The translations under genes and the position numbers were made by a program. This document shows positions 5,180 through 27,124 of a stretch of DNA of 64,000 bases, piece by piece; the stretch's first letter is position 1, and each line of letters opens with the position of its first letter. The notes below the pieces were generated by a model, which worked only from the letters and a program-made list of their open reading frames with translations, searched no databases and was not told where the DNA came from. This DNA comes from Bryobacterales bacterium (lineage in GTDB: Bacteria > Acidobacteriota > Terriglobia > Bryobacterales > UBA6623), in NCBI GenBank assembly GCA_965226435.1, contig CBDDCY010000012.1, positions 553,138 through 617,137 on the forward strand, in the 5' to 3' direction.

Positions 5180-6445
5180 TCACGACAAGACAAACGAGGT
5201 CTCTCGCCCGGCGGCGCGCGCCACGGCTTCGGCCGCCTGATAGCCGCTCCGCACGGCTCCCTCCATCGTTGCCGGCCAGCCGGTTCGGGTCCAATCGCCG
5301 GCGAGAAAAACATTCGGGTACTTCGTCGCCGTAGGCGGGCGGTGCGCCTCCAGGCCCGGGGCAATCGAATACGTCGCTCGGGCTTCCTTGATCACATGGG
5401 CCTTGACCAATTTGGCGTCGTGGGCCGCGGGGAAAAACTCGACCAGCTCCCGCCGCGCCGTTTCGATGATCGCCTCTCGGGACAGCGGCACCAAAGACCG
5501 CGAAGCGCTGACGACGCATTGCACATAGTTCGCCGACTTGCGAAACATCCACTGCATCGTGCGGTCGAGCAGGACGGCGTGAGGCAGATCGGTCACTTCG
5601 CGGTCGAACCAAAGATGAATTCCCGTGATCGGCGAATGCTCGAATTTCTCGAGTGGCAGCGCAAGTTCGGGAACAAGCGCATTCACGCGCTCAAACGGGA
5701 CGGCGCTTATGTAAAAGTCCGCCGCGCGATCGTTTGGGTCGATGCGCTCGACCGGCGAGCGCAAGTGAAAACGAACCCGCTCGCCAAACCTCTCCGCCGA
5801 CCCCGCCGAGTAAAGCTCGCCGAGCGGCACGGCGGGGATGCCCATTTCGTAGCTCTCACGTGTCGCCATCAAACCTTCCAAGAAGACCTGAAACGCCGGG
5901 CGAGCCGAGGCGCGCTCGGGATCTTCATTCAGCGCGCTCACCAGAATCGGCCTCCAAAAACGCTCGACGGCATTCCCCGCGGCTCCCTTCGACGCCAACC
6001 AATCAGCCATCGTGACGGTGTCGAGATCGGCCCGGTTTCGCTCACGCCGCATGGCGCCCAGCGCTCTGAAGATCGAGCGTTTGTCAGCGAAAGTCAGCCC
6101 CTTGAAACCGAGCAACGATCCGAGAAGATGCGCCGGCGCGGGCAGCCGGCCCGGTTTCAGGATATCCGTCGCGCCGCCGGGACGAACGAAGTACAACCGA
6201 TCATAGAAGCGAATCTTTTCTTCCACCCCGCCGCGCCGGTAGAAATCCAATAGGTTCGTAAAGCAGCGCAGCAAGACATGCTGGCAGTTGTCGATGTGTT
6301 CGGAATCTTCCGCGGCGGGGTTGAGGGGAAACGACGTCGCGCGGCCCCCGAGAAAGGGGCGTGCTTCGTGGAGCTCGATCTCGAAACCGATCGATCCAAG
6401 AGCGGCCGCGGCGGCCAGCCCGGCAAGCCCGCCTCCGACGATCAC
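5180..6445 (-). CDS. hpnE: Hydroxysqualene dehydroxylase (FAD-dependent amine-oxidase/phytoene-desaturase fold)
   Basis: N-terminal dinucleotide-binding motif VVIVGGGLAGLAAAAAL..ELHEARPFLGGRA. It lies directly downstream of hpnD and hpnC. I place the start at the GTG at 6445, overlapping the hpnD stop; the ORF-track Met at 6688 would overlap hpnD by 240 nt. Confidence 0.8.
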   Translation of the reverse strand: MIVGGGLAGLAAAAALGSIGFEIELHEARPFLGGRATSFPLNPAAEDSEHIDNCQHVLLRCFTNLLDFYRRGGVEEKIRFYDRLYFVRPGGATDILKPGRLPAPAHLLGSLLGFKGLTFADKRSIFRALGAMRRERNRADLDTVTMADWLASKGAAGNAVERFWRPILVSALNEDPERASARPAFQVFLEGLMATRESYEMGIPAVPLGELYSAGSAERFGERVRFHLRSPVERIDPNDRAADFYISAVPFERVNALVPELALPLEKFEHSPITGIHLWFDREVTDLPHAVLLDRTMQWMFRKSANYVQCVVSASRSLVPLSREAIIETARRELVEFFPAAHDAKLVKAHVIKEARATYSIAPGLEAHRPPTATKYPNVFLAGDWTRTGWPATMEGAVRSGYQAAEAVARAAGRETSFVLS

Positions 6446-7326
6446 TACGCGGGGTATGGCGGCGCTCCTCCGGTCAATCGCAGCTTCAGCGCTTGGACGA
6501 CGATCCACACCTTTTCGAAATCGCTCAATCGGGCGCGGCTCGTGAAGACATCGTAGCCGCGGCCGCGAATGCGCCGCAAGATACCGTAGTAGATCGAAAT
6601 CATGGCCCACAGCGAGGGGCGCCCGGTCGGGCTGACCATGCCGAGCAGCGGCGCGGCTTCGGCGTAATATCGGTTGGCGCGCTCCCACTCGAAGGCCATC
6701 AACTTTTCAAACCCTTCTCCCGGACGGCCCGCGAGCAAATCCTCGGCGCTGACTCCGAACCTTGCGAGGTCTTCCTGGGGCAGATAGATGCGTCCCATGC
6801 GGGCGTCTTCGGGAATGTCTCGCAGGATGTTGGTGAGCTGAAAGGCCACGCCGCATTTTTCGGCCAAGCGAAGCGCGTCAGGCGAGTCGAACCCCCAGAC
6901 GTGAATACAAGTCATGCCGACGACCGAGGCGACCTGATAGCAATAGCGGTAGAGCTCGTCGAAGGTCTTGGGCTGTCGCGGAACCAAGTCCGAGCCCACG
7001 CCATCGATCAGTTCGAAAAAATATTCGGGCGGAATACGGTAGCGTTTGACCGTGTCGTGAAAGGCGGGCAGGATCGGGTTGTCGCCGTAACGCCCTTCGA
7101 GCGCTTGTTGGAGTCCGTGTTTCCAATCGGCAAGCGCCGCGCGGCGAGCCGCTACCGGCGGTTCGGTCTCGTCGCTGATGTCGTCGGCGTACCGCATGAA
7201 CGCATAGATGGCGCACATGGCGGTCTTTTGTTCGCGGGGAAGCAGCACAAAGGAGTAGTAGAAATTCCTTGCCCGGCGGCGAGCGATGCGCCGACAATGC
7301 TCGTACGATTCTTCGAGGGGAGGCAT
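6445..7326 (-). CDS. hpnD: Presqualene diphosphate synthase (squalene/phytoene synthase family)
   Basis: SQS/PSY family motifs YAFMRYADDISDE and YCYQVASVVG..NILRDIPEDARMGRIYLP. Position between hpnC and hpnE. Confidence 0.85.
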   Translation of the reverse strand: MPPLEESYEHCRRIARRRARNFYYSFVLLPREQKTAMCAIYAFMRYADDISDETEPPVAARRAALADWKHGLQQALEGRYGDNPILPAFHDTVKRYRIPPEYFFELIDGVGSDLVPRQPKTFDELYRYCYQVASVVGMTCIHVWGFDSPDALRLAEKCGVAFQLTNILRDIPEDARMGRIYLPQEDLARFGVSAEDLLAGRPGEGFEKLMAFEWERANRYYAEAAPLLGMVSPTGRPSLWAMISIYYGILRRIRGRGYDVFTSRARLSDFEKVWIVVQALKLRLTGGAPPYPA

Positions 7327-7339
7327 AAAACTGCCTGTC

Positions 7340-8320
7340 CTAGATAGGGCTGATTTCCCGCGCCCGGGCCGGGTGGGTCAACAGCCTGCGCGTCGCCACG
7401 CGGAGCAACAGCGATAGCCGACCGACTTTGCCGAGTTTGGGCCGCTGTCTTATGGTGTCGTAGTCTTGGCGGCGAATCAACTCCAGAATCGCCAAGCCGC
7501 CGCGGCTGAATAGTTCCAGGTCCACCGCCAAGCGACGGTCGACTTGATCGGCCAACGGGAGCCCCTTGCGGAACAGTCGCTCGGCGTCGTCGACGAGGCT
7601 TCGAGTTATTGCCCGGAACTCGGGACGAGCCTGCCCGCGCTGTAAATCCTCGTCGAGCATGTCGAGCGAGTAGTGATGTGATTCCATGCGGTCGAGCGGG
7701 ATGTAGACTCGGTCGATCGCCCGGTCGCACGCGACGTCTTGCCAAAAGTTGGTCAATTGCAAGGCGGTGCAAGTGAAGTCGGAGAGGCGTCGTCGGTCGT
7801 CGTCGGTGTAGCCGCAAAGGTGCAGCACGAGCCGGCCGACGGGGTTGGCCGAATAGCGGCAATATTCCAGAAGCTGTTCGTCATTGGCGTAGCGGGTTAC
7901 GGATTGGTCTTGGACAAAGGCGCTAATCAAATCGGCAAAGGGCTCTTCGGGGATGTCGTGTTTTTTGACGGTTTCGCGGAGCGCCACGTAAACGGGATGC
8001 TTGGCCCGGCCGCTATAGAGCGCGGCCAGCTCTTCACGCCACCACCCGAGCAAAACCAGACTGCGCTCGGTGTCGCCCATCTCGTCGCCCAGGTCGTCCG
8101 CCCAGCGGCAGAAGGCGTAGACGTTGAAGAAATCCTGATGGAGATGCGCGGGCAGCAGCCGACTGACGAGCTGAAAGTTTTCATAGTGGGAGCGAGCCAG
8201 CCGCCGCGTGTAGTCGAGAGAATCGTCGAGAGACCAGGCGGGAAATTCCGTACCCACGGCTGCGACAAAATCAGCGGGCTGAAGGAAGGGTTTCACGACC
8301 GGTGCGGCAACTGGGGACAT
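7340..8320 (-). CDS. hpnC: Hydroxysqualene synthase (squalene synthase-like)
   Basis: Motifs YAFCRWADDLGDE and QLTNFWQDVACDRAIDRVYIP. The start is taken at the Met of MSPVAAPVVKPF (8320); the upstream 117 codons of the ORF are Arg/Pro-rich and look non-coding. Confidence 0.8.
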   Translation of the reverse strand: MSPVAAPVVKPFLQPADFVAAVGTEFPAWSLDDSLDYTRRLARSHYENFQLVSRLLPAHLHQDFFNVYAFCRWADDLGDEMGDTERSLVLLGWWREELAALYSGRAKHPVYVALRETVKKHDIPEEPFADLISAFVQDQSVTRYANDEQLLEYCRYSANPVGRLVLHLCGYTDDDRRRLSDFTCTALQLTNFWQDVACDRAIDRVYIPLDRMESHHYSLDMLDEDLQRGQARPEFRAITRSLVDDAERLFRKGLPLADQVDRRLAVDLELFSRGGLAILELIRRQDYDTIRQRPKLGKVGRLSLLLRVATRRLLTHPARAREISPI

Positions 8321-8373
8321 TGGGTCGCGCAGGCGACGCCGCGATCCGACCAAGCAAGAGCGCTCTTCCACCG

Positions 8374-9435
8374 CTACGGCAGAATCGCTGTTTTCAGATG
8401 GCCGTTGTGGCTCATCATTTCGCGGAAAACCGAGAGCAGATCGGACAGCGGCGCTTCGTTGATGACGAAATCGGCCGAGCGCAGGTCGCGTCGGCGAATG
8501 ATTTCGAGGGCCTGGCGGATATGCCGCGGGGTGTGGTGGAAGCTCGACTTGAGCGTAACCTCGGAGTAGTGAATCAGCGAAGTGTCGATCGGTACGTGGC
8601 TGTTGCCGGGACAACCGCCGAAGAAGTTGACGGTCCCGCCGCCGCGCACCATCCCCATCGCCGCCTGCCAAGTATCGGGCGTGCCGACAGCTTCGATCAC
8701 GGCGTCCGCGCCGCGCCGCTCGTCGGTGAGGCCGCGCACTTGGGCCACCCAGTCGGCGCCGTCGGCGGCGATGACGAGTTCGTCGGCGCCCATGCGCTCG
8801 GCACGCTCAAGCTGCGTCGGGCGGCGGCCGATAGCAATCACGCGCGCGCCGCTGAGGTGCGCCAATCGCACGAACATCAGCCCGATCGGACCGAGCCCGA
8901 TCACCGCGACCGTGTCTCCTTCGTGAATCGCGGTTTCCTCAATGCCCCGCATTACGCACGCCAGCGGCTCGACCATCGCCGCGTCGCGATAGGCAACTCC
9001 GTCGGCGATCTCGTGGGTATTGCAAGCAACAATCGGTCCCGGAATGCGAACGTACTCCGCATAAGCGCCGTTATTGAACAGCAGGTTTTCACAAAGGTTT
9101 TGTTGATCCCGCGTGCAGGGATAGCACTGCCGGCAAGGCGCCGAATTGGCCGCGACCACTCGCTGCCCCACTTGGAAGTTTTCCACTTCCGAACCTACCG
9201 CCACGATGTCGCCCGCCAGCTCATGCCCCAGCACCGCCGGAGGCTGGATCATGCGCGCATGGTAACCCCGCCGAAACACCTTCAAGTCGGTGCCGCAGGT
9301 CAGAGCCACCTGAACCCTCACCAAGATGTCGTTGGGTCCCGCGGACGGCACGGGAACCGGCTCAATGCGGAGTTCCTCTTTGCCGTACAACATCGCGGCC
9401 ATCATGGTCTGTTTCACGTTCGAATTCCTCAACAA
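8374..9435 (-). CDS. Zn-dependent medium-chain alcohol/polyol dehydrogenase (MDR family), paralog 2
   Basis: Catalytic Zn ligand region CGTDLK...GHELAG, structural Zn cluster CRQCYPCTRDQQNLC, and Rossmann motif VIGLGPIGL. It is 12 nt downstream of paralog 1. The exact start is uncertain (MLRNSNV or MMAAMLYG). Confidence 0.8.
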   Translation of the reverse strand: MLRNSNVKQTMMAAMLYGKEELRIEPVPVPSAGPNDILVRVQVALTCGTDLKVFRRGYHARMIQPPAVLGHELAGDIVAVGSEVENFQVGQRVVAANSAPCRQCYPCTRDQQNLCENLLFNNGAYAEYVRIPGPIVACNTHEIADGVAYRDAAMVEPLACVMRGIEETAIHEGDTVAVIGLGPIGLMFVRLAHLSGARVIAIGRRPTQLERAERMGADELVIAADGADWVAQVRGLTDERRGADAVIEAVGTPDTWQAAMGMVRGGGTVNFFGGCPGNSHVPIDTSLIHYSEVTLKSSFHHTPRHIRQALEIIRRRDLRSADFVINEAPLSDLLSVFREMMSHNGHLKTAILP

Positions 9436-9447
9436 ACGCTTGCGCCG

Positions 9448-10530
9448 TCAATTCTGCGGATGCACCACCAGCTTCAGAGAACCATTGACGGGATGACGCG
9501 CCAACTCGATCCCATGCTCCAACTCGCCCAAGGGCAGACGATGCGATATCAGCTCTTCGACCGGGAAGTCGTCGCGCCACACGATTTCCGCCGACTCTTG
9601 CTGCAAATCAATCGCGGCGCTATAGGACCCGAAGACGGTGCGCTCCTGGGCGCAAATCGCCGCGCCCGACAACTCAAACGTTTCCCGCGACGAGGTCTGC
9701 GCGAAAAGCATCACGCGGCCTCCGGGCCGTGAAGCTTCGATCGCCTTCTCGACAATCCGGGGCGCCGAAGCGGCCACGATGACGAGATCGGCGCCGCGCC
9801 CCGCGGTCTTGGCGGCCAACTCCGCGGCCAGGTCGGTTTCCAGTGGATTCCAGCATTCGACGGCGCCCATCCGCCGCGAAGCCTTGATACGCGGCTTCAA
9901 GACGTCGGTCGCGAAAACCTGCTCCACGCCCGCCTGCCCGAGCAGCATCGTAAACAGCAGCCCGATCGGGCCCTGCCCCATGACAAGGACGGTCTCGTCG
10001 CGGGCGACGTCACACTGCCGCAAAGCTTTCAAGCAGGTATTCACTGGTTCCACGAAACTGGCGCGGTCGAAACTGATATCGTTGGGAATCTTCACGACGC
10101 CGCGCCGCGCGATCCAATCCATAACCTTGACGTACTGCGCGAAGCCGCCCCCGGCCGGCTCGAATCCGGCCGTCACGCCGACTTTCTTGTAGGTCGCGCA
10201 CTGTGCGTAGTTGCCGTGCTCGCAATAGAAACAATCGAGACACGGCACATGGTGGAACAAGCAAACCCTGTCGCCCGGCGCGAGATCCCGCACCTCATCA
10301 CCGGTGCGCGCGACCACGCCGGCGGTTTCATGCCCAAAGACGCGCGGCGGCGGAAGCAGGTCGTATTCAATCTTTTTCAAATCCGTATGACAAATGCCGC
10401 AGGACTCCACGCGCACCAACAACTCGCCGGATCCGATTTCGGGGACCGGAAGCTGTTCCAAATGGACACGACTCGAGCCTCGATAAACCGAAGCTCCCAT
10501 CGAATCCGGCACCGCTAAAGCACTCATCAT
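9448..10530 (-). CDS. Zn-dependent medium-chain alcohol/polyol dehydrogenase (MDR family), paralog 1
   Basis: Motifs CGICHTDLK...GHETAG, structural Zn cluster CLDCFYCEHGNYAQC, and VMGQGPIGL. The start codon at 10530 directly abuts the hpnG stop (10531-10533). Confidence 0.8.
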   Translation of the reverse strand: MMSALAVPDSMGASVYRGSSRVHLEQLPVPEIGSGELLVRVESCGICHTDLKKIEYDLLPPPRVFGHETAGVVARTGDEVRDLAPGDRVCLFHHVPCLDCFYCEHGNYAQCATYKKVGVTAGFEPAGGGFAQYVKVMDWIARRGVVKIPNDISFDRASFVEPVNTCLKALRQCDVARDETVLVMGQGPIGLLFTMLLGQAGVEQVFATDVLKPRIKASRRMGAVECWNPLETDLAAELAAKTAGRGADLVIVAASAPRIVEKAIEASRPGGRVMLFAQTSSRETFELSGAAICAQERTVFGSYSAAIDLQQESAEIVWRDDFPVEELISHRLPLGELEHGIELARHPVNGSLKLVVHPQN

Positions 10531-11250
10531 CTACACGTCAAATTTCGCGCGGCTGAAAAACGCCGCCAACGCAACGGCCGCCAGCTCGGAGTCGGCCTTG
10601 AGCCGTCGCAAGCTCTTCCAACAACGCGGGCGCGCTATGATTTGGGCCGCCACGCGCCAACCCGAAAACGTTCCGTCGGATCGTCGCGCCCGATTAAGGT
10701 CGATCGGGAATGACGCCTCGGCCTCATCACTGATCACGCGGACGCAGAAAAACGGCAATTTCCGTGCCGCGGCTTCCGCTGCAACCGCCGAGGCTTCCAT
10801 CTCGACGGCATCCGCCCTGAGTCTAAAAAGCTCCCTTTTTCCGCGAGCCGTTTGGACAACCTCATCGACGGTCAACAAAGAGCCGTGCGCAGGCTTCCGC
10901 CCTCCCGACCAAGTCGGTAACTTTACAGCATACTCCAGTCGCGGCTCGCGCTGTATGACACGTGTGGCAATGAAAACGTCCGCAAGAGAAAGTGTTTCAG
11001 CGAGGGCACCCGCGAATCCAGTCGAAATCACGGCTGCAACCGGCTGCTCGGCGCACGCGCGGCGCACAGCACACCCCGCGTTTTCTCGCCCCGGCCCGTG
11101 GGCGACGAGCAAGGCCGGACCCGCCCTCAAGGTAGTTCGCGCTTTCCAACGAAGCCCGGCTGGGGACGTCGACGGTTCGACGTCAGGGAACGCCGCGAAC
11201 TCCCGCCGGTCGGCCCCGACGACTAGCAATACCGGTTGTTCTGAAACCAT
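10531..11250 (-). CDS. hpnG: Hopanoid-associated nucleosidase/phosphorylase (PNP_UDP_1 family)
   Basis: About 240 aa phosphorylase-family protein (LLVVGADRREF..., EMEASAVAAEAA motif). It is flanked by hpnA and overlaps its 3' end by 28 nt. Confidence 0.7.
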   Translation of the reverse strand: MVSEQPVLLVVGADRREFAAFPDVEPSTSPAGLRWKARTTLRAGPALLVAHGPGRENAGCAVRRACAEQPVAAVISTGFAGALAETLSLADVFIATRVIQREPRLEYAVKLPTWSGGRKPAHGSLLTVDEVVQTARGKRELFRLRADAVEMEASAVAAEAAARKLPFFCVRVISDEAEASFPIDLNRARRSDGTFSGWRVAAQIIARPRCWKSLRRLKADSELAAVALAAFFSRAKFDV

Positions 11251-12272
11251 CGAATCGCTCGCTCGAGAGCTGCTTCCAGCGGCCCGCCCGCGAAGCCGAT
11301 TTCCCGCTCGGCCTTCGCGGACTCCACAAACATTTTCTTGCGGGCCATGCGGACGGCATCGAGCGGTGCGCGCGGCGGTCGGCCGGTGAGCCGGGCGGCG
11401 GCGGTCGAGACAGCCCCATAAGCATAGGCCGCGGCGTAGGGAATGCGGATCTTCGGCGCGGGCCGGCCGCTGATCGTCGACAACGCCTCGAAGATCTCCC
11501 GCAGCGTCATGTTTCGTCCGCCCAATATGTAACGCTCCCCGCTCACGCCTTGTTCCATGGCCGCCAAGTGACCGCGGGCAACATCACGAACATCGACCAT
11601 ATTCAAGCCGGTGTCGAGATAGGCCGGCATTGCGCCCCTGAGGAAATCGACGATGATTTGCCCCGTCGGCGTTGGCTTGCGGTCGCCCTCGCCAACCGGC
11701 GCCGTGGGGTTGACGACGACGACGGGCAATCCGTCGGCCGCGAATTCCAGCGCGACTTGCTCCGCTAGAAATTTGGAGCGCTTGTAGGCTCCTTCCATTT
11801 CCGATAGTGAGACAGGCGTGTCTTCGTTGCCCGATTCGGCGGTGCCCGGTACGCCGATGCAGCCGACCGTCGAGGTGTAGACGACGCGCTTGACGCCGGC
11901 GGCGCGGGCCGCCTGAAGAATGTTTCGGGTGCCCTGGACATTCGAGGCGTAAATTTCAGCCGGGTTCGGCGCCCACAACCGATAATCCGCGGCGACGTGG
12001 AATAGCTCGGTGCAGCCGTCGATCGCGGTTCGAAGCGACGCCGGGTCGCGCAGATCGCCGATCACCGGCTCGACCGCAAGATCCACGATACCCGCGCGGT
12101 CGCTCGACGGCCGCACCAAAGCTCGGACCGAGCGACCTTCGTCCACCAACAGGCGGGCGATGTGGGAGCCGAGGAATCCTGAAGCGCCGGTAAGGAACGT
12201 CACAATGCGCGGGAGCGGAACTGCCGGCACGCTGCATCCCGTACGCCGACCTAGGGATTGCGCGGCCTTCAA
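11223..12272 (-). CDS. hpnA: Hopanoid-associated NAD(P)-dependent sugar epimerase/dehydratase-family protein
   Basis: SDR extended-family motif FLTGASGFLGSHIARLL and catalytic YxxxK (YKRSKFLAE). Cluster position. An alternative downstream start is possible. Confidence 0.7.
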   Translation of the reverse strand: MKAAQSLGRRTGCSVPAVPLPRIVTFLTGASGFLGSHIARLLVDEGRSVRALVRPSSDRAGIVDLAVEPVIGDLRDPASLRTAIDGCTELFHVAADYRLWAPNPAEIYASNVQGTRNILQAARAAGVKRVVYTSTVGCIGVPGTAESGNEDTPVSLSEMEGAYKRSKFLAEQVALEFAADGLPVVVVNPTAPVGEGDRKPTPTGQIIVDFLRGAMPAYLDTGLNMVDVRDVARGHLAAMEQGVSGERYILGGRNMTLREIFEALSTISGRPAPKIRIPYAAAYAYGAVSTAAARLTGRPPRAPLDAVRMARKKMFVESAKAEREIGFAGGPLEAALERAIRWFQNNRYC

Positions 12273-12812: not shown

Positions 12813-13529
12813 TTACCGTCGCCCTTCAAGAATGGTTTCGGATAAGGGCCTGCCTTTGATTCGTATCGGACGGAATCGCTTTGGCTCCGGTCTCCGCGAG
12901 ACAAGGTTTGCGAAGTCGGGATGTCCCCGGTTGAGCCGTACGGTTGTGGTTGGATACATCGGCGCCTTGGGGTTATGAATCTTTGCGGTGAGTACGAGAC
13001 CGCAGTCGGTTGCCCGCCGCAGAATCCGGTTCCGTTCGGCGCCATCAACGGTCCAAGAGAAACCTCGGCCGGGGAGGTACGTGTCTCGGAACCATTTCAG
13101 AGCAACAAAGCGCCTTTCCGGGCTGCTTTCCGCTTCGTCCAGCGCCTCGATCAGATTCTTGATTCGGCTCTCGGATAGGTTTGGCGGACCCTCAACAAGG
13201 CTGTCGATTACTTCCCTCGAAAGCTCACTGTCGCCTGCCTCACGATCAGTGGTGGACGCGGCTTCATCTCTTCGTTCGTAACCAATCAATGCCTGGCACT
13301 CAGCCGGTTTCCAGTATTCAGCGGCTGCATTGCGTCGGATCCTGCGAACCCCGCGGTTTGTGCCCGGACGCACCAACAAAACTTGCGGTTCTAGGCCCTT
13401 CGGGGCCAAGTGACGAAGATCCGCCAACTCAGCCGGCAGGTCGCTGGTGTTACGCAGGGCCTTCAAGGCATTCTCAATATCCACTTGGATCTCCGCGATC
13501 GTTTTTTTCGGTTTGGGAATACGCTTCAT
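12813..13529 (-). CDS. Hypothetical 238-aa protein in the antitoxin position of the PIN module (atypically long)
   Basis: Its stop abuts the vapC start. The C-terminal tail is RPIRIKGRPLSETILEGRR. A central region (RFVALKWFRDTYLPGRGF...LVLTAKIHNP) could be a winged-helix-like fold. I recognise no family. It is preceded by an AT-rich promoter-like region. Confidence 0.5.
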   Translation of the reverse strand: MKRIPKPKKTIAEIQVDIENALKALRNTSDLPAELADLRHLAPKGLEPQVLLVRPGTNRGVRRIRRNAAAEYWKPAECQALIGYERRDEAASTTDREAGDSELSREVIDSLVEGPPNLSESRIKNLIEALDEAESSPERRFVALKWFRDTYLPGRGFSWTVDGAERNRILRRATDCGLVLTAKIHNPKAPMYPTTTVRLNRGHPDFANLVSRRPEPKRFRPIRIKGRPLSETILEGRR

Positions 13530-13800: not shown

Positions 13801-14919
13801 CTACGACAGCACCCAGCTCAGCATTTTCAAACTGTCGCCGAGCCGTGCGTTCACGCCCAAGGCCGCCGAGGGCTCGTAGCCGCAATGCACCAAACAGTGC
13901 TCGCAACGTTCATCGTTGCCGCGGCCGTAGTTTTGCCACGGCGTTTGATTCATCAATTCGTCGAAGGTCTCCCAATGGGCGTCGGTGATCAGGTAACAGG
14001 GACCCTTCCAACCGCGGACGTTGTAGGTCGGGTTGCCCCAAGCGGTACAAGGCAACTCGCGCTCGCCTTTCAAGAATTCCAAATACGCCGGCGTCGAGGT
14101 CAGCCGAAAGCGCCGAAAGATACGATCGATGTCTCGAAACTTCTCGTGCACTTCTTCCCGCGTCAAGAAGATCTCACGGGTGCCCACGGCCGCGTAACCG
14201 TAGGCGGGCGACAGCATATGCCCGTCGACGCCGAGCGGTTCGAGAAATTCATAGAGCGCTTCGATCTCCTTCATGTCCGTCTCGCGGTAGACGGTCGTGT
14301 TGGTGCAAACCATGAAGCCGGCCTTCTTCGCCGCGCGGATACCCTCGATCGCCTCGTCGAATACGCCCTCGCGCTCCACGGCCAGATCGTGCGTTTCTCG
14401 TAATCCATCCAAGTGGACATTGAAAAATAATCGATTGCACGGCTGAAACTCGTGCAGCCGCTTGACCAGAAACATGCCGTTCGTACAAAGGTAGACGTGA
14501 CGTTTGCGTTCTAAAATACTCGCCGCTAACGGCCCGATTTGTGGATACATCATCGGCTCGCCGCCGCATATCGAAACAATTGGCGCGCCGCACTCATCCA
14601 CGGCGGCGAGGCATTTTTCAAGCGGAATGCGCTCGGTGATCGTCTCGTCGTATTCGCGAATGCGACCACAGCCGGTGCAGGTCAAGTTGCAGGCGTGCAG
14701 GGGCTCGAGCATCAGCACCAGCGGGAAGCGCCTTCGCAAGTAGGGATGCGGAACCGCGTCACCGGAAATCCGCGTCGGGGCCGAGCCGTTCGCCAGAATC
14801 GGAAACGGGCCGGCACCGGCCGCCGGCGTCGGATCGCCCTGCCAACGAGCCGGAGGTCGCAGCCTATTCTTGGTGATGTAGGCGCCAAGCCGCACGGCGG
14901 TTTCGAGGGGAATGCGCAT
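13801..14919 (-). CDS. hpnH: Adenosylhopane synthase (radical SAM)
   Basis: Radical-SAM cluster motif CNLTCTGC. 372 aa, with the C-terminal Cys-rich region (CEHCLVHCGYE) typical of HpnH. Adjacent to shc. Confidence 0.85.
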   Translation of the reverse strand: MRIPLETAVRLGAYITKNRLRPPARWQGDPTPAAGAGPFPILANGSAPTRISGDAVPHPYLRRRFPLVLMLEPLHACNLTCTGCGRIREYDETITERIPLEKCLAAVDECGAPIVSICGGEPMMYPQIGPLAASILERKRHVYLCTNGMFLVKRLHEFQPCNRLFFNVHLDGLRETHDLAVEREGVFDEAIEGIRAAKKAGFMVCTNTTVYRETDMKEIEALYEFLEPLGVDGHMLSPAYGYAAVGTREIFLTREEVHEKFRDIDRIFRRFRLTSTPAYLEFLKGERELPCTAWGNPTYNVRGWKGPCYLITDAHWETFDELMNQTPWQNYGRGNDERCEHCLVHCGYEPSAALGVNARLGDSLKMLSWVLS

Positions 14920-15042: not shown

Positions 15043-16986
15043 CTACAGCGCCTTGGCGTACTCGGCCATGGCCAGTAACGGAAAATACTGCCGATAGAGA
15101 TCGTACTTCAAATAGAAAACGCCGGGGAAACCGGTTCCGGTGTAGTTCCATTCGCTCCACGAGCCGTCGGGACTCTGTGTTTCGAGCAAGTAACGGATCC
15201 CCGCCTCGACGCTGCCCGAGCGATTGTCTCCCGAGGCCAACAGTCCCAGCAACGCCCATGCCGTCTGTGAGGCCGTGCTCTCTCCCTCGGTCTTCTGTCT
15301 GGGATCATCGTACCCGGCGCAGCTTTCTCCCCAACCGCCGTCGGCGTTCTGGATCGAACGCAGCCATTCCCCGGCGCGGATGATGTAGGCCTCGCGGGGA
15401 TCCTCGCCCGCCGCCGCCAAACCCCGTAGAGCGAAACACGTGCCGTAGATATAGTTCACACCCCAACGCCCGAACCAGCCGCCGTCGTCTTCCTGCGTTC
15501 GTTTGAGAAACTCGACTCCCCGCCGCACGGCCGGATGGGACTCTCCCGGGCCGACCGTGCATAGCGCGTCCAAAACCCGCCCGGTCAAATCCGGGCAGGT
15601 CGGGTCGAGCATCGCGTTGTGGTCGGCGAAGGGAACATGGTTGAACAGGCGATTGTTGTTGTCCACGTCAAACGCGCCCCAACCGCCGTCCTTCGACTGC
15701 ATGCTGAGCAGCCATTTCACTCCGCGCCGTACGGCCGCGCGTTGAGCATCGAGGTTCGTCGCCTTGGCATGGCTCAACGCCAAAAGCACCTGCGCGGTGT
15801 CGTCGGTATCGGGATAAAACTCGTTCGCGAATTCGAAGTACCAGCCTCCCGGCTCGCCTGCTCGGTTTCTCACCGCCCAGTCGCCCGGCCGGCGCACTTC
15901 CTTCGTCAGCAACCAGTCGGCCGCGCGGCGCAAAGCCCCGCCGACCTCTTCGGAAGGATTCGGGAAAGCCGTTCCGACGGCGGCCGCCGCCAAGCCCGTG
16001 TCCCACACCGGCGACAGGCAGGGCTGTAGGCGCATCGTGCCGCTGTCGTCGTCGCCCTGCTCGATGATCAGCTCGTCGAACTTCTCGATCTGTCGCCGCA
16101 GCAACGGGTCGTCAAGCCCGTAGCCCAGCTCGGTCAGCGCCATGATGCAATTCATCATGGCCGGGAAGATCGCGCCCAGCCCGTCGGAATGCTCAAGCCT
16201 TTCGATCATCCAACGCGATGTGGCGCGAACCGCCTTGCGGCGCGCCCTTCGAATCCCAACGCGTTCCCAAACCTTGAGCGCGCGGTCGGCCAATAAGAAG
16301 AGATTGCCGGGGTCAAACAGATTGCCTTGCGCCCGCTGAGCATCCTTCGAAAGCTCATCCAAATCAATACCCGTCGGCATGGGGCGAGAAGCTCCCAACG
16401 CGCCCAAAATCGCCAACGGAGCGATAATGGCGCGCGTCCATGACGACATGTCATAGACGCTGAACTTGGCTTTGTCGGGAAGCAGGAATAGCTCGGGGGG
16501 GATCGTCGGCGTCTTGGCGCGGTCGTAGAGCCCGAAGAAACTTAGATAAATCTTGGTATAGCTGTTGGTCGCCTCGACGCCGCCCAACTGGAGAATCCGC
16601 CGCTTGGCGTGAACCAGCCGCTCGTCGTCGGCGCCGTACCCGGTTAGCCGCAGGGCCAGATAGGCCTTGACCGAAGCGCTGACATTCACCGGCCCGCCCG
16701 GATAGATGTTCCAACCGCCGTCGGGAAGCTGCCGGCTGAGAATGTAGCGGGCGGCCCGTGCGATTCGATCGACGGTCGGAGGCCCCCAAGACCCCGCTCG
16801 GGGCGGGTAGAGCCACAATTGCAGCAGGATGTAGTCGGATTCAAGCGAGGTGTCGGCTTCCAGTTCACCGATCCACCAGCCGCCGGGCGACTGGCGGGCG
16901 AGCAAGCAGCCGGCGGCCGCGCGCACGGCCGAGTGGATCTCGGAATGTCGATCCGGAGCGAGAGTTTGTACCGCCGCTGTACTCAA
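15043..16986 (-). CDS. shc: Squalene-hopene cyclase
   Basis: 647 aa. Catalytic DxDDTA motif (YPDTDDTAQVLLAL). Repeated QW-type motifs (QSPDGSWSEW, QNADGGWGES, QEDDGGWFGRWG, QSKDGGWGAF). Confidence 0.95.
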   Translation of the reverse strand: MSTAAVQTLAPDRHSEIHSAVRAAAGCLLARQSPGGWWIGELEADTSLESDYILLQLWLYPPRAGSWGPPTVDRIARAARYILSRQLPDGGWNIYPGGPVNVSASVKAYLALRLTGYGADDERLVHAKRRILQLGGVEATNSYTKIYLSFFGLYDRAKTPTIPPELFLLPDKAKFSVYDMSSWTRAIIAPLAILGALGASRPMPTGIDLDELSKDAQRAQGNLFDPGNLFLLADRALKVWERVGIRRARRKAVRATSRWMIERLEHSDGLGAIFPAMMNCIMALTELGYGLDDPLLRRQIEKFDELIIEQGDDDSGTMRLQPCLSPVWDTGLAAAAVGTAFPNPSEEVGGALRRAADWLLTKEVRRPGDWAVRNRAGEPGGWYFEFANEFYPDTDDTAQVLLALSHAKATNLDAQRAAVRRGVKWLLSMQSKDGGWGAFDVDNNNRLFNHVPFADHNAMLDPTCPDLTGRVLDALCTVGPGESHPAVRRGVEFLKRTQEDDGGWFGRWGVNYIYGTCFALRGLAAAGEDPREAYIIRAGEWLRSIQNADGGWGESCAGYDDPRQKTEGESTASQTAWALLGLLASGDNRSGSVEAGIRYLLETQSPDGSWSEWNYTGTGFPGVFYLKYDLYRQYFPLLAMAEYAKAL

Positions 16987-17084: not shown

Positions 17085-18083
17085 TCATAGATTAGCGATT
17101 TGAGTCAGTTCGCCTTGATGCCCGGCCAACTCCGAAGGCAGCGGAAAACTGACGTCTTCCTCAATCACTTCGACTTCCTCGACCCGCGAAAACCCGAATC
17201 GCGCAAGCTCGTCCACGATACCCCGAACCAGCACTTCCGGCGCCGACGCTCCGGCCGTCACCGCGACGCGCCTGACTCCGCTGAACCACTCCTCGTCGAG
17301 TTGCGACTTGTCGTCGATCAGATGTCCGAGCACGCCCAGGTTTTCACCCACTTCGACAAGCCTTCTCGAATTCGAGCTGTTTTGCGAGCCCACGACCAAT
17401 AGCAAGTCGGCTCGCGGCGCGACGCGCTTCACCGCTTGCTGACGGTTTTCGGTGGCGTAACAGATATCCTTCGCCGGCGGCCCCTGAATGTCGGGGAAGC
17501 GCCGCCGCAACACTTCGATGATGACCCCGGCCTCGTCGAGGCTCAGCGTCGTCTGCGTCAAATAATAGACGTTGGCCGGGTCGGGGACCTCGACCTGCCG
17601 CGCTTCCTCGGGCGACGAGACAACGATAGTGCGCTCCGGGGCCTCTCCCATCGTCCCGATCACTTCGTCATGGTCGCGGTGGCCGATCAGCAAAATCGTA
17701 CCCCGCGTCGCGGCGAAGCGGACGGCTTCCAAATGAACTTTCGTCACCAGCGGACAAGTCGCGTCGATCACTTGCAAGCGTCGCCGCTCGGCCTGTTCAC
17801 GGACCTCGGGCGCGACGCCGTGGGCGCTGTAAACCGCGCGTCCGCCTTCGGGAACCTCATCGAGTTCGTCCACGAAAACCGCGCCGCGCGAAGCCAGGTC
17901 GCTGACGACGTGGCGATTGTGGACGATCTCTTTGCGGACATAAATCGGCGGTCCGTAGACCTGTAGGGCCAGCTCGACAATGTCGATTGCGCGCACCACG
18001 CCGGCACAAAATCCGCGCGGCTTGAGCAGATAGACGATCTTTTCGCCACCGTTTACCCAAGTGGGGGAAACGTTTTCAGCCAT
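17085..18083 (-). CDS. ispH: 4-hydroxy-3-methylbut-2-enyl diphosphate reductase
   Basis: LytB family motifs: PRGFCAGVVRAI, SAHGV, ATCPLVTKVH, VVGSQNSSNS. The start is taken at MAENVSP (18083). Confidence 0.9.
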   Translation of the reverse strand: MAENVSPTWVNGGEKIVYLLKPRGFCAGVVRAIDIVELALQVYGPPIYVRKEIVHNRHVVSDLASRGAVFVDELDEVPEGGRAVYSAHGVAPEVREQAERRRLQVIDATCPLVTKVHLEAVRFAATRGTILLIGHRDHDEVIGTMGEAPERTIVVSSPEEARQVEVPDPANVYYLTQTTLSLDEAGVIIEVLRRRFPDIQGPPAKDICYATENRQQAVKRVAPRADLLLVVGSQNSSNSRRLVEVGENLGVLGHLIDDKSQLDEEWFSGVRRVAVTAGASAPEVLVRGIVDELARFGFSRVEEVEVIEEDVSFPLPSELAGHQGELTQIANL

Positions 18084-18216
18084 CGAATTTTCCGATCGAG
18101 AGCAATAGCAAAATATAGCCCGCCGCCCGCCGCATCGCAAAGGCGTCTCTATAGCTTACAGTAGCGGCTCGGGGGTTACGGCGGAAACCTTCAATAGCAA
18201 CCGACGATATCGCGAA

Positions 18217-19371
18217 TTAACCCCCGTTGTGCATCCGTCCCGCCCGGTCGAGACGGTATCGCCGCCCCGCCCACTCGACGCGGTTCCCGAGAAAACTCGC
18301 GCACCAAACCCCGAACGCGAAAAGGTCGGCCACGAAAATCCAATGACCCCGCCGATCGACCAATTCGGACCCTAGCGCCCCCCGACCGACCGACCAAGCC
18401 GCGACTCCCCGCAGCGCCAGGCAAATCAGCGCCGCGACCGCCGCCGGGGCCTGATTCCCCGCCAACCCGAGAGTCGCGAGGCTCCAGACCGTGCCGTGTG
18501 TGAAGAGCAGCCCCGCATGTCCCCAAGGCCGCGAAACGCGCACCGTGCGCGACCACCGCAGCCAATGCCGCCCGACGTCGCGCCACCCCGCATCCGGCAC
18601 AACGGTTTCCACCACGCGCCGGGCCAAGACAACGCGCCGACCTTGCGCGGCCAGCCGACTTCCCAATTGGTAGTCATCAGCCAAGAACGGCCGCAGCGCC
18701 TCGAAGCCGCCAAGGGCATCGAGGTCGGCGCGGCGAAGCGCCATCGTCGCGCCCAACGCAAAGCGCATCCCTTGGAAACCGCGCGCCGCCAGCACCTGCC
18801 CTTGAAACTCCGTCGACACCCACAGAGCTTCGAGCAATGACGCAAAGCCCTGGGCGGGGCGGGCGCGGTACAAGCAGCTCACCAGACCGACCGCGGGGTC
18901 ATCCAACTCGGCGACAACTTCCCGGAAATAACCCGACTCGACGGTGATATCGGCGTCGTTGACCAAAAATACGTCGTGGTGGGCGCGGCGCGCCAGTTCC
19001 TCGAGCCGCCATACCTTGGCGTTGCCCGCGGGCGCGGGTCCGCACACAACGATCTCGATCGGACGGTCGGAAAATTCGGCGGCCAAGCGAGAGACCACCG
19101 CAACGGCCGGGTCGTCAGCCGTCTCGACACCGAAAAGCAGCTCGAACTCGGGATAGTCCTGTGTAGCGTGCGCTCGGAGGTTTTCTTCCAACGACCCGCC
19201 GTTGCCCTGGAGAGGCTTGAGCACCGACAGCGCCGGAGTCGCTCCGCCGACACGCGGCCCGCCGCGCCAAAAGCGCCACGCAAGCCATGTGACCGCCAAG
19301 TAATGGAACGACGCGCAAACCGTCAAAGCGACGGCAACGAACGAGAGAGGATCGCTCACCAACTCCGTCAC
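18217..19371 (-). CDS. hpnI: Hopanoid glycosyltransferase (GT21/ceramide-glucosyltransferase-like)
   Basis: N-terminal TM helix, then SVLKPLQG...QDYPEFELLFGV, a D-x-D region (LVNDADI), and C-terminal TM helices. It lies directly downstream of ispH and shc. Confidence 0.65.
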   Translation of the reverse strand: MTELVSDPLSFVAVALTVCASFHYLAVTWLAWRFWRGGPRVGGATPALSVLKPLQGNGGSLEENLRAHATQDYPEFELLFGVETADDPAVAVVSRLAAEFSDRPIEIVVCGPAPAGNAKVWRLEELARRAHHDVFLVNDADITVESGYFREVVAELDDPAVGLVSCLYRARPAQGFASLLEALWVSTEFQGQVLAARGFQGMRFALGATMALRRADLDALGGFEALRPFLADDYQLGSRLAAQGRRVVLARRVVETVVPDAGWRDVGRHWLRWSRTVRVSRPWGHAGLLFTHGTVWSLATLGLAGNQAPAAVAALICLALRGVAAWSVGRGALGSELVDRRGHWIFVADLFAFGVWCASFLGNRVEWAGRRYRLDRAGRMHNGG

Positions 19372-19378
19372 CGGGTGC

Positions 19379-19741
19379 CTACGTGGAAACCAACATCACG
19401 CCGCAGGTTACCAACAACGCACCCGCCCAGCGCCGCCGGGAGATCGCTTCTCCCAAGACCGTTCTCGCCAGCAACATCTCGACCACGTAACCCGCCGCCG
19501 TCGCCGGTACGGCGAAGCTGACGTCGGCGATCGAAAGCAGCGCCATGAACGCAAAGAACGACAGGGCATAGCCGACCAGCGAAAGCCAAATCACCGCGGA
19601 GCCCCCGACGCGGCGCGCCTCGCGCGCCAGCGACCGCGGACGAAAATCGTCGATCAGTCCCAAGCGCCGCATCCCGGCGGCTTTCAGGAGATCGCCGGCG
19701 ACCGTCCCCCCGACAACCAACAGCAGCAAGAAGAACTTCAA
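19379..19741 (-). CDS. Small EamA/DMT half-transporter (4 TM), ArnE/ArnF-like
   Basis: 120 aa and hydrophobic, with 4 predicted helices. Its start overlaps the upstream paralog by 4 nt, and its stop is 7 nt from the hpnI start. Confidence 0.6.
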   Translation of the reverse strand: MKFFLLLLVVGGTVAGDLLKAAGMRRLGLIDDFRPRSLAREARRVGGSAVIWLSLVGYALSFFAFMALLSIADVSFAVPATAAGYVVEMLLARTVLGEAISRRRWAGALLVTCGVMLVST

Positions 19742-20145
19742 GCCGCGCCGCCTGGGGGTCGATCAGCCGTTGACGCCGGGGTCGATCCGACCACGCCCAC
19801 CCCGAAGGTAATCAGCACCGTCCCGGCCCAACGTGCGGCGGAAACGGTTTCTCCGAGCACCAACCAACCGAGCACCGCGACCAGTACGTACCCGATCGAC
19901 GTCACCAGCAAGACATAGCTGAGGTCGGCCCGACTCAGCACCAAGGCGTGAGCGACGAAGAAAATCAGCAGCAGGACGACGCCCGCCGTCACCCAGGGGT
20001 TGATGAACGCCCGCAGCCCCCCTTGAACCATGGCCAAGGGAGAGTAAGAGGCGATGTCACCCACCTGTTGCATGCCGTAACCGAGCACGATGTTGCCCGC
20101 GGCGTTCGTGACGATCACGATGAGCAGAAGGTAGGCGGTTTTCAT
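19738..20145 (-). CDS. Small EamA/DMT half-transporter (4 TM), ArnE/ArnF-like
   Basis: 135 aa with 4 predicted helices (MKTAYLLLIVIVTNAAGNIVLGYGMQ...). Paralog of the downstream gene. Confidence 0.6.
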   Translation of the reverse strand: MKTAYLLLIVIVTNAAGNIVLGYGMQQVGDIASYSPLAMVQGGLRAFINPWVTAGVVLLLIFFVAHALVLSRADLSYVLLVTSIGYVLVAVLGWLVLGETVSAARWAGTVLITFGVGVVGSTPASTADRPPGGAA

Positions 20146-25282: not shown

Positions 25283-27124
25283 CTACCGCGCCGCCGTCCG
25301 AACTTTCTTGAGCAGGTCCCGCATGAAGGTGTCTTCAGGGAAAAGCTCGACGTATTTTTGCGTCGATTTGGCGGCTTCGCTGTACATCTTGAGGTTGATG
25401 TACTTTAGGGTTAGTTTCTTACGAAGCCTTGGATTAAAGGGAGATGCGTCGACGCCGGCGCGGAGAGTTTCGAGAGCTTCGAAATCGCGACCGGCGCGGG
25501 AAAAAGCTTCGGCGAGGTCTTCGAAGGTCGAGGCTGTTGACGACCCGGCATCGAGAGCCATCTCGAGATATTCGATCGTCTTGGGCGAGGGCGCGTCCCC
25601 TGCGTCGATCTTGGCCTTGCGGCCGAGCGCGGCCAGGACAAGCGCGTCGTCGGGGTGTTTTTCGGCGGCCTCGGCGAGCAAAGAGAGATATTTCGCGTTC
25701 AATTGCGGGTTCCTTGCCGAGAGTTCGCCGATGGCGCGGAAACGCGTGAGCAGGGGCAGCGATTCGGCGGCTTGTCCGGGCGGGCGGTTGACGTGGACGA
25801 GCTCGGGCAGGTCGGGGGTGGTTTTCTCAAAGGCCGCGTCGGGAAAAGGTTGGTCCTGGCGGCGGACGATGCGGTGATTCGTCAACGAAGAGTGCGAGAT
25901 GACCTCGACATCGCGTTGGGGCATGTGGCACCCGGAGCAGTTGTTGGCGGGCGATTGGCGCATACGCCGGTCGAGGGGCTGGGTGCAGCTTTCGTTGTCG
26001 TGGCACTGGAAACATTTCTCGCGATAGTGGGCGACTTTGGTTTCCGGCGTTGGCTGGTTGTGGATCTCGTGGCAAGTGAAGCAGCTTAGCTTGCCCGCGG
26101 TTTGGCGAAAGCAAGCGCTGAGTTCCATGGAAAATTGATGCTCGAGGAGATCGGATTCGCGGGGATTACCGCGTTCCATCGGGAGCTTGAAGATCGCCAG
26201 GGTATCGTTGAGGTGCGTGCCGGGACGGAAGTCTTGGTAGTTCTTGCCGGGTTGCAGGACCCGCGTGTCGCCGCCCTGATGGCAATTCATGCAGATGCCT
26301 TCGGCAATGCGCGCGGGCATTTTCAAGGGGTGAACGATAGTCGGGTCGAGAGCTTCGTCGGACTCGAGTTGCTCGAGGCGCTTGTCAACGTGCAGCTTGC
26401 CGGGCCCGTGGCAGTTTTCGCAACCGATGGCCAACTCCTCGAAAGGCGGGTCGCGAAAGAGGCCGTCGCGGTCTTTGACCGACATCGGGCGGCCGGCGTG
26501 GCAGACGATGCAACCGGCGCGAACCGGGCGGTTGAAACCGGCGTCGGCCAACTCGTAGCCGGGTGAGAGGTCCCACTTTTTGGCGCGCGAATAGAACGAG
26601 AGCGGAGCTTCAAACAAGTGATCGCCTCGGCGCACGATATAGGTGACGCCGTTGACGCCGGAGCCGACGGCGTATTCGACCTTGTGGATGTTTTCGAAGA
26701 TCTTCCGGCCGGATTTGGCGAGGGCGTATTCGGATTGATAGAGGGCTCCGTCTTCGCGGAAGACTTCGAAATAGCGGTCGAGTTTTTCGCTGCGAACGGT
26801 AATGCGCTCGGGGACGGGCGTGTGATGGGCGTCGGCCGCCGTCGCCATCGAACGACCCATCGCCATTTGGCGGTAGTTGTTGTAGACGTCTTCGTGGCAG
26901 CCTTGGCAGGCTTGGGAACCGACGTAGGGGACGTCGAGGGCGGTGTTGAGAAAGTTGGGCGGCGGGGAGGGCTTTTCGGCCCCATGCGCCGAGACGGCGA
27001 GGAGGAACAGGGCCGGGGCCAACCGAGCAGCAAGCGCGCTCGCGCGGCGAAAACTCCACCAACTCGCGGCGTGGGAGCGGCGCGAGACAGCGCAACTATC
27101 CGTCAATCTCACCGTACTCATCAT
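25283..27124 (-). CDS. Multiheme c-type cytochrome (7 CxxCH) fused to TPR repeats
   Basis: Heme motifs CQGCH, CIVCH, CENCH, CMNCH, CFTCH, CFQCH and CSGCH. Signal peptide. The C-terminal third is TPR-like (YLEMALDAGSSTASTFEDLAEAFSRAGR...). Confidence 0.85.
   Translation of the reverse strand: MMSTVRLTDSCAVSRRSHAASWWSFRRASALAARLAPALFLLAVSAHGAEKPSPPPNFLNTALDVPYVGSQACQGCHEDVYNNYRQMAMGRSMATAADAHHTPVPERITVRSEKLDRYFEVFREDGALYQSEYALAKSGRKIFENIHKVEYAVGSGVNGVTYIVRRGDHLFEAPLSFYSRAKKWDLSPGYELADAGFNRPVRAGCIVCHAGRPMSVKDRDGLFRDPPFEELAIGCENCHGPGKLHVDKRLEQLESDEALDPTIVHPLKMPARIAEGICMNCHQGGDTRVLQPGKNYQDFRPGTHLNDTLAIFKLPMERGNPRESDLLEHQFSMELSACFRQTAGKLSCFTCHEIHNQPTPETKVAHYREKCFQCHDNESCTQPLDRRMRQSPANNCSGCHMPQRDVEVISHSSLTNHRIVRRQDQPFPDAAFEKTTPDLPELVHVNRPPGQAAESLPLLTRFRAIGELSARNPQLNAKYLSLLAEAAEKHPDDALVLAALGRKAKIDAGDAPSPKTIEYLEMALDAGSSTASTFEDLAEAFSRAGRDFEALETLRAGVDASPFNPRLRKKLTLKYINLKMYSEAAKSTQKYVELFPEDTFMRDLLKKVRTAAR

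Follow-up and report, generated by a model that had tools for sequence, protein, structure and literature searches.

Hopanoid locus and dehydrogenase pair

A hopanoid biosynthesis locus is located on contig CBDDCY010000012.1 of a Bryobacterales genome (UBA6623, Acidobacteriota; GenBank assembly GCA_965226435.1). The analysed stretch of 64,000 nucleotides (positions 553,138 to 617,137 of the forward strand) is termed the window in the following, and all coordinates refer to it. Pfam and NCBIfam scans of the window's open reading frames (ORFs) identified a hopanoid supercluster on the minus strand at ~5.2-19.4 kb. The gene order is hpnI-ispH-shc-hpnH-(238-aa ORF)-hpnA-hpnG-ADH1-ADH2-hpnC-hpnD-hpnE, and most of these genes reach curated equivalog cutoffs (Table 1). 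ADH1 and ADH2 encode two Zn-dependent alcohol dehydrogenase-like proteins, which are inherited as a pair. A redox role at the sugar end of the C35 hopanoid side chain is tentatively proposed for the pair in Terriglobia. The window encodes HpnI, and the substrate assigned to this enzyme is bacteriohopanetetrol (BHT) (PMC12583986). The reduction of ribosylhopane to BHT is therefore expected in this organism. A preliminary description of the window had regarded the enzyme of this step as unassigned, which was confirmed by a paper of November 2025 stating that it is still not established (PMC12583986).

The stop codon of hpnG (TAG, 10533-10531) is followed in frame and without a gap by ATG 10530, which opens the ADH1 ORF. 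The abutment given in the preliminary description thus holds for the ORF, but not necessarily for the gene. Residues 1-10 are not conserved among ADH1 homologs, and Met11 is conserved in at least 90%. The real start may therefore be 10500, with a gap of 0-30 nt between hpnG and ADH1. Likewise, the 12 nt reported between ADH1 and ADH2 correspond to the earliest possible ADH2 start, TTG 9435. More likely starts are GTG 9417, with GAGGAA ahead of it, or ATG 9405, and the gap is thus 12-42 nt. Whichever starts are used, hpnG, ADH1 and ADH2 are tightly packed. The gene after ADH2 is hpnC, as had been described (Table 1).

Active sites and cofactor motifs

Both proteins match PF08240 and PF00107 above the gathering scores, representing a GroES-like catalytic and a Rossmann NAD(P)-binding domain, respectively. 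They belong to the Zn-dependent medium-chain dehydrogenases/reductases (MDR). The catalytic Zn ligands of ADH1 are Cys44, His67, Glu68 and Glu161, the structural ligands are arranged as C97xxC100xxC103x7C111, and the Rossmann motif is G185xGxxG190. In ADH2, the corresponding positions are Cys47, His71, Glu72 and Glu156, C101xxC104xxC107x7C115, and G180xGxxG185. The intactness of these sites, already recognized in the preliminary description, extends to nearly all orthologs (96-97 of 97 for ADH1, 85-86 of 86 for ADH2). The two proteins share 28% identity in a pairwise comparison and have separate ortholog families. They are thus ancient paralogs, and a recent tandem duplication was ruled out. 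The earlier term "tandem paralogs" is to be understood as an ancient and obligate pair, neither recent nor redundant.

The second Rossmann strand ends with Asp209 in 95 of 97 ADH1 orthologs, the classic NAD signature. The corresponding position of ADH2 is occupied by G203-R204-R205, conserved in 79-80 of 86 orthologs. In an alignment, G203-R204 coincides with A199-R200 of the NADP(H)-dependent ketose reductase 1E3J, and in the NAD-dependent threonine 3-dehydrogenase (TDH) 2D8A this site holds a Glu. Based on established knowledge of MDR motifs, ADH1 is predicted to be NAD-type and ADH2 NADP(H)-type.

The nearest relatives with solved structures are threonine 3-dehydrogenases, the putative Zn dehydrogenase 4EJ6, galactitol-1-phosphate 5-dehydrogenase (GatD) and sorbitol dehydrogenase (SDH)/ketose reductase. 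The best E-values against PDB were only 1e-37 to 1e-39, for ADH1 (TDH, GatD, SDH) ~1e-37 at best, and human SDH 1PL6 is a distant match of the two proteins (8e-32 and 6e-30). The JGI label of homologs, L-iditol 2-dehydrogenase/sorbitol dehydrogenase, is an automatic annotation. The L-threonine 3-dehydrogenase models TIGR00692 and NF003808 gave 155-160 bits for both proteins, below their cutoffs of 380 and 458. Identities as threonine, scyllo-inosose or galactitol-1-phosphate dehydrogenase were rejected, the scores being far under the curated cutoffs. Since this applies to all NCBIfam equivalogs and the PDB matches are distant, homology does not reveal the substrate of ADH1 or ADH2. TIGR03366 ("HpnZ_proposed") was also discarded. 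It is a model of phosphonate catabolism, the name coincides with that of hopanoid genes by chance, and the score is under the cutoff.

Obligate pairing and clade size

A one-genome-per-species scan yielded the best 80 loci, all with the Bryobacterales-type arrangement, which were annotated with the window proteins. A metagenome scan seeded with clade members from outside Terriglobia added 80 further loci. Pairing was counted with jackhmmer profiles in a total of 176 loci, 147 of which have at least 700 nt beyond ADH1. An ADH2 ortholog follows ADH1 in 146 of these 147 loci; the lone exception is an outgroup cyanobacterial gene. Thus, the conserved unit is the pair and neither gene by itself. 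Identity of the second gene to ADH2 of the window is 44-57% in all lineages except the distant L095 (35%). Several lineages show a 4-nt overlap of the ADH1 stop with the ADH2 start.

To delineate the ADH1 clade, representatives of 50%-identity clusters were searched exhaustively and a neighbour-joining tree without support values was computed. Tree and score drop suggest a small clade of ~10 full-length 50%-identity clusters. Outside the clade, generic MDR proteins of 33-36% identity were found.

Apparent fusions of HpnG with ADH1 did not withstand inspection. P0149 combines an HpnG C-terminus with an ADH1 N-terminus and had been considered as Rosetta-stone support. Its contig, L177, carries shc, hpnA and SQS genes in pieces, which indicates a frameshift-ridden assembly and P0149 as an artefact. 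On this contig (ENA contig_93369), the shc, hpnA, ADH and SQS_PSY genes are each split into several short ORFs, as is typical of uncorrected long-read indels. Such indel-ridden contigs seed protein databases with false "fusion" proteins, for instance P0149. A 654-aa ORF spanning hpnG and ADH1 in L055 is no fusion, as the hpnG match lies in another reading frame. P0139 (602 aa) was rejected as an HpnG fusion: its N-terminal domain is a sugar-phosphate nucleotidyltransferase and the protein is outside the ADH1 clade. This outgroup protein joins a sugar-1-phosphate nucleotidyltransferase domain to a polyol-dehydrogenase-type MDR. Its architecture presumably resembles that of bifunctional CDP-ribitol synthases (cytidylyltransferase plus ribulose-5-phosphate reductase).

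Gene neighbourhood in related genomes

All Bryobacterales- and Terriglobales-type loci examined (~120 loci from two orders, 47-95% protein identity) have the pair embedded among hpn genes. Most of the best 80 Bryobacterales-type loci have the order hpnA-hpnG-ADH1-ADH2-hpnC-hpnD. An hpnG homolog is located directly upstream of ADH1 in ~96 related loci, and hpnC or hpnD directly downstream of the pair in ~93. Seven Bryobacterales-type loci (L010, L013, L019, L031, L035, L036, L055) retain hpnG-ADH1-ADH2 alone. The flanks of the three that were scanned (L013, L019, L055) encode unrelated proteins, e.g. recA, a transposase and GlnE. Terriglobales maintain hpnA-hpnG-ADH1-ADH2-hpnCDE even with toxin-antitoxin genes between hpnA and hpnG. 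Another lineage of the clade shows hpnH-hpnA-hpnG-ADH1.

Several further arrangements were observed. In five loci (L141, L143, L148, L154, L164), the order is ispH-hpnA-ADH1-ADH2-(one SQS_PSY-family gene)-shc, with no hpnG or hpnH in the stretch. The single hpnC/D-type gene before shc might be equivalent to the fused hpnCD described for subdivision 2 (PMC5462960). Two Armatimonadota loci carry a 343-aa aminotransferase class I/II/beta-eliminating lyase gene (threonine aldolase-like) directly before the pair (L091, 8946-9977; L092, 683-1714). There, hpnCDE and trpA come after the pair, and shc, hpnH and hpnG are absent within ~10 kb on either side. L026, L043, L069 and L078, four of the 80 Bryobacterales-type loci, come from metagenome-assembled genomes (MAGs) labelled Verrucomicrobiia, Acidimicrobiia, Gammaproteobacteria and Arcobacter. 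Their gene order and identities are those of Bryobacterales loci, and the labels are probably binning or labelling errors in public records.

Acidobacterial hpn genes have been described by Sinninghe Damste et al. 2017 (Front Microbiol 8:968, PMC5462960). Their "cluster C" consists of hpnA, hpnG and then ug1, and "cluster A" of ug2, hpnC, hpnD and hpnE. The gene ug2, usually annotated as a ~350-aa Zn-binding alcohol dehydrogenase, is present in all strains of subdivisions 1 and 3. Both genes were reported as of "unknown function", ug2 being "somehow associated" with hpnCDE, and HpnA rather than ug1 or ug2 was proposed to reduce ribosylhopane to BHT (PMC5462960). Judged by position and annotation, ADH1 and ADH2 are the same genes as ug1 and ug2.

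Other genes of the locus

Table 1. Features of the hopanoid supercluster in the window, with the family matches on which the assignments are based.
Feature	Position	Strand	Basis
hpnI (BHT glycosyltransferase)	18217..19371	-	TIGR03472, 322 bits, cutoff 310
ispH	17085..18140	-	NF002189, 451 bits
shc (squalene-hopene cyclase)	15043..16986	-	TIGR01507, 657 bits
hpnH (adenosylhopane synthase, radical SAM)	13801..14919	-	TIGR03470, 421 bits
238-aa ORF between hpnH and hpnA	12813..13529	-	no Pfam/NCBIfam match
hpnA (SDR-type "hopanoid-associated sugar epimerase")	11223..12272	-	TIGR03466, 471 bits, cutoff 368; overlaps hpnG start
hpnG-like nucleosidase/phosphorylase	10531..11250	-	TIGR03468, 111 bits, cutoff 187; PNP_UDP_1 fold
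ADH1 (ug1), Zn-dependent medium-chain dehydrogenase, 360 aa	9448..10530	-	ADH_N + ADH_zinc_N
ADH2 (ug2), second Zn-dependent medium-chain dehydrogenase	8374..9435	-	ADH_N + ADH_zinc_N
hpnC (hydroxysqualene synthase)	7340..8344	-	TIGR03464, 323 bits, cutoff 250; likely ATG near 8320
hpnD (presqualene diphosphate synthase)	6445..7326	-	TIGR03465, 266 bits, just under cutoff 278.6; SQS_PSY domain
hpnE (hydroxysqualene dehydroxylase)	5180..6688	-	TIGR03467, 452 bits, match begins at residue 81

For the hpnG-like gene, TIGR03468 is the top-scoring family despite the score under the cutoff, and the adjacency of hpnA and hpnG is conserved. The hpnE ORF is over-extended, with the real start probably near 6450. 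The 238-aa ORF had no tblastn match in the 80 Bryobacterales-type loci, in which hpnA directly follows hpnH. It may be a lineage-specific insertion or not a gene. Just upstream of it, a sigma-70-like site (13673-13644) and a terminator-like hairpin (13787-13773) were noted. Scans for promoters and terminators at the operon boundaries were uninformative, since the counts equalled chance expectation.

Two half-size genes of EamA-family membrane proteins adjoin hpnI on the minus strand (19379-19741 and 19738-20145; 120 and 135 aa, 4-nt overlap). A similar half-size pair is located at the edge of a Terriglobales hpn cluster (L081, 16476-17272), beside a B12-binding radical SAM gene. Such pairs near hpn clusters could constitute a hopanoid-associated two-subunit transporter. 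Just outside the hpn cluster, the minus strand encodes a 613-aa protein with weak matches to decaheme c-type cytochrome families (25283-27124) and an 816-aa protein with an M6-type metalloprotease domain (22562-25012).

Possible function of the pair

The favoured explanation regards ADH1 and ADH2 as a co-inherited module of two different Zn enzymes of the polyol/threonine dehydrogenase type, one NAD-type and one NADP(H)-type. They would act jointly, as subunits of a hetero-oligomer or as catalysts of two successive redox steps. The operon hpnA-hpnG-ADH1-ADH2-hpnCDE of Terriglobia (Bryobacterales, Terriglobales) includes the module, which would most likely catalyze redox reactions there at the sugar/polyol terminus of the C35 side chain that HpnH and HpnG build. 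For substrate and division of labour, we infer that the NADPH-type ADH2 may reduce the open-chain aldehyde of ribosylhopane, yielding BHT. The NAD-type ADH1 would be a partner subunit or catalyze a second oxidation or an epimerisation at a side-chain hydroxyl. A literature search for BHT stereoisomers in Acidobacteria found nothing. Several observations favour the side-chain role. The pair belongs to the operon in all Bryobacterales- and Terriglobales-type loci despite rearrangements. It is placed right after hpnG, and hpnG-ADH1-ADH2 modules survive apart from the cluster. The chemistry is suitable: a polyol-type enzyme with an NADPH motif fits the reduction of ribosylhopane, which is reportedly NADPH-dependent in a cell-free system. 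Finally, HpnI with its assigned substrate BHT is present. The explanation as a whole is tentative and could well be wrong.

A narrower version assumes a two-component MDR reductase for the last core step of BHT formation in Terriglobia, with ADH1 as an obligatory partner or an enzyme epimerising the side chain. The module would be derived from an older one for 5-deoxy-type ribose. If this older module handled 5-substituted riboses set free by Pfs/HpnG-like nucleosidases, the persistence of the pair in hopanoid-free Vicinamibacteria would be explained. This version is considered unlikely in its full detail.

Several observations weigh against a role in hopanoid side-chain reduction. Characterised enzymes of the polyol/threonine dehydrogenase branch usually convert secondary hydroxyls or ketones rather than aldehydes. 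In 44 loci (~40 from the metagenome scan), no hpn gene accompanies the pair, and four of these hpn-free loci have a flank of ~10 kb on both sides. It stands alone in L094, L095, L085 and L088. All stand-alone pairs that could be named by exact-sequence look-ups belong to Vicinamibacteria, the Acidobacteriota class corresponding to subdivision 6. Cultured strains of this subdivision do not make hopanoids, and its genomes, cultured and environmental, contain hpnC, hpnD and hpnE but neither shc nor other genes of bacteriohopanepolyol synthesis (PMC5462960). The Vicinamibacteria proteins (46-52% identity to the window for ADH1, mostly 47-60% for ADH2) are as similar to those of the window as the hpn-embedded Terriglobales orthologs (47-50% and 53-57%, respectively). 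The pair is thus not confined to hopanoid makers with shc, hpnH and hpnG. Across the phylum, the module is not specific to hopanoids, and in Vicinamibacteria its substrate must be a different one, or 5-substituted riboses or polyols in general. Stand-alone pairs in Vicinamibacteria and elsewhere have variable neighbours (queF, proline dehydrogenase, a WYL regulator), and those of the Vicinamibacteria pairs therefore give no clue to function.

Among the hpn-linked loci, too, the linkage to hpnG is not constant. An Armatimonadota MAG shows aminotransferase-ADH1-ADH2-x-hpnCDE with no hpnG nearby. L093 has ADH1-ADH2-hpnC-hpnD with overlapping stops and starts, and an upstream hpnG is absent. In L166, the pair is accompanied by hpnCD(E), and hpnG-hpnA-shc-ispH is located ~5 kb away on the opposite strand. 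The gene directly before the pair is hpnA instead of hpnG in L141, L145 and L154. In fragmented clusters, the pair goes with hpnCDE about as often as with hpnG. Moreover, every ADH1-clade lineage to which a name could be given belongs to Acidobacteriota or Armatimonadota (~5 are without a name), and ug2 is absent from the BHT producer C. thermophilum, which has hpnCDE (PMC5462960). The pair is therefore not found in all BHT-producing lineages and cannot be a universal ribosylhopane reductase. The preliminary description had proposed the pair as reductase candidate and had named orthologs without hpn genes and absence from other BHT producers as checks. Both came out at least partly against the proposal. 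Its basis, the operon position after hpnG, was retained, and the NADP(H)-type motif of ADH2 speaks for it; the small clade and the hpn-free Vicinamibacteria pairs speak against it.

The linkage to hpnCDE has to be considered in its own right. The pair may serve squalene synthesis or turnover by HpnCDE, acting on an isoprenoid alcohol (hydroxysqualene, presqualene alcohol, farnesol) or in a reductive HpnE step. The frequent downstream position of hpnC or hpnD agrees with this, as do loci with hpnCD(E) but without hpnG (L093, L007, L008, L166 and the Armatimonadota loci L091 and L092). Vicinamibacteria retain hpnCDE and the pair without shc, hpnH and hpnG, and ug2 had already been tied to hpnCDE by Sinninghe Damste et al. 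(PMC5462960). However, the three-step route by HpnD, HpnC and HpnE, as described, needs no Zn alcohol dehydrogenase. Squalene synthesis in E. coli reportedly requires no more than these three proteins. The pair and hpnCDE are not adjacent in Vicinamibacteria, in the seven small Bryobacterales-type loci it stays with hpnG away from hpnCDE, and C. thermophilum has hpnCDE without ug2. A squalene-related function is thus regarded as improbable.

Alternatively, the substrate may be a small molecule independent of hopanoids (sugar, polyol or amino alcohol), which is epimerised by oxidation and subsequent reduction or serves a cycle exchanging NADH and NADPH. The place in the operon would then reflect co-regulation or inherited synteny. 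This would fit the unrelated neighbours of stand-alone pairs, the small polyols and amino alcohols used by the closest characterised relatives (TDH, SDH/ketose reductase, GatD, butanediol dehydrogenase), and the opposite cofactor motifs, which suit two-enzyme redox couples. Against it, the pair was never away from hpn genes in the ~120 Bryobacterales- and Terriglobales-type loci, in spite of toxin-antitoxin and transposase insertions and splits of the cluster. Such long persistence makes neutral synteny unlikely. The small-molecule function is doubtful, but a serious possibility. Redundancy of the two genes, either alone being sufficient, would be compatible with the complete catalytic motifs in both proteins. 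It was rejected as highly improbable, given the 28% identity, the separate ortholog families across classes and phyla, the constant co-occurrence and order, and the differing cofactor motifs.

Overall, ADH1 and ADH2 form a real, deeply conserved hopanoid-operon module and are a legitimate candidate for the ribosylhopane reductase of Terriglobia. Bacteriohopanepolyols rank among the major membrane lipids of bacteria and give rise to the geohopanes that serve as molecular fossils. The locus offers a concrete, cloneable two-gene candidate for the class Terriglobia, Acidobacteria that are abundant in soil. The comparative data limit the claim: the enzyme is not universal, and it may serve squalene metabolism or a general sugar/polyol function. 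A strictly co-inherited pair of an NAD-type and an NADP-type MDR enzyme would be a well-defined target for enzymology even without a role in hopanoid synthesis.

Comparison with known systems

The counterparts of ADH1 and ADH2 in position and annotation are ug1 and ug2, described without obligate pairing, cofactor motifs or presence in subdivision 6 (PMC5462960). Their association with hpn genes was thus published in 2017. The reductase hypothesis was not, and it was not found in the searchable literature. New are the obligate pairing, the split into NAD- and NADP-type, the wider range, which extends to hopanoid-free Vicinamibacteria and to an Armatimonadota MAG, and a linkage to hpnG about as strong as that to hpnCDE. 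The genes ug1 and ug2 of the 2017 study appear to represent one functional unit.

The same reaction as proposed for the pair has been observed as an activity in cell-free extracts of Methylobacterium organophilum (Bodlenner et al. 2015, ChemBioChem, cited in PMC12583986), to which no gene has been assigned (PMC12583986). As no named member of the ADH1 clade is proteobacterial, a different enzyme probably acts in M. organophilum, the genome of which was not searched. The polyol/threonine dehydrogenase branch of the MDR enzymes (1PL6, 1E3J, 2DQ4, 2D8A, 4A2C) has the two-domain architecture, the Cys-His-Glu(-Glu) and four-Cys Zn sites and the GxGxxG motif in common with ADH1 and ADH2. The ketose reductase 1E3J shares the Ala/Gly-Arg NADP motif with ADH2. 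The similarity to this branch is distant (PDB E-values of 1e-37 to 1e-39 at best). To our knowledge, none of its characterised members is a fixed pair of two paralogs or acts on a lipid-bound sugar. Two-enzyme couples with NAD and NADP are represented by the fungal xylose reductase (NADPH) and xylitol dehydrogenase (NAD+), and by IolG (NAD+) and IolW (NADPH) of B. subtilis. In these couples, NAD- and NADP-type enzymes act sequentially on one carbon skeleton, which leads to the interconversion of aldose, alditol and ketose or to the epimerisation of a hydroxyl; this is an analogy only. Unlike ADH1 and ADH2, they belong to other families (AKR, Gfo/Idh/MocA) or are encoded by unlinked genes.

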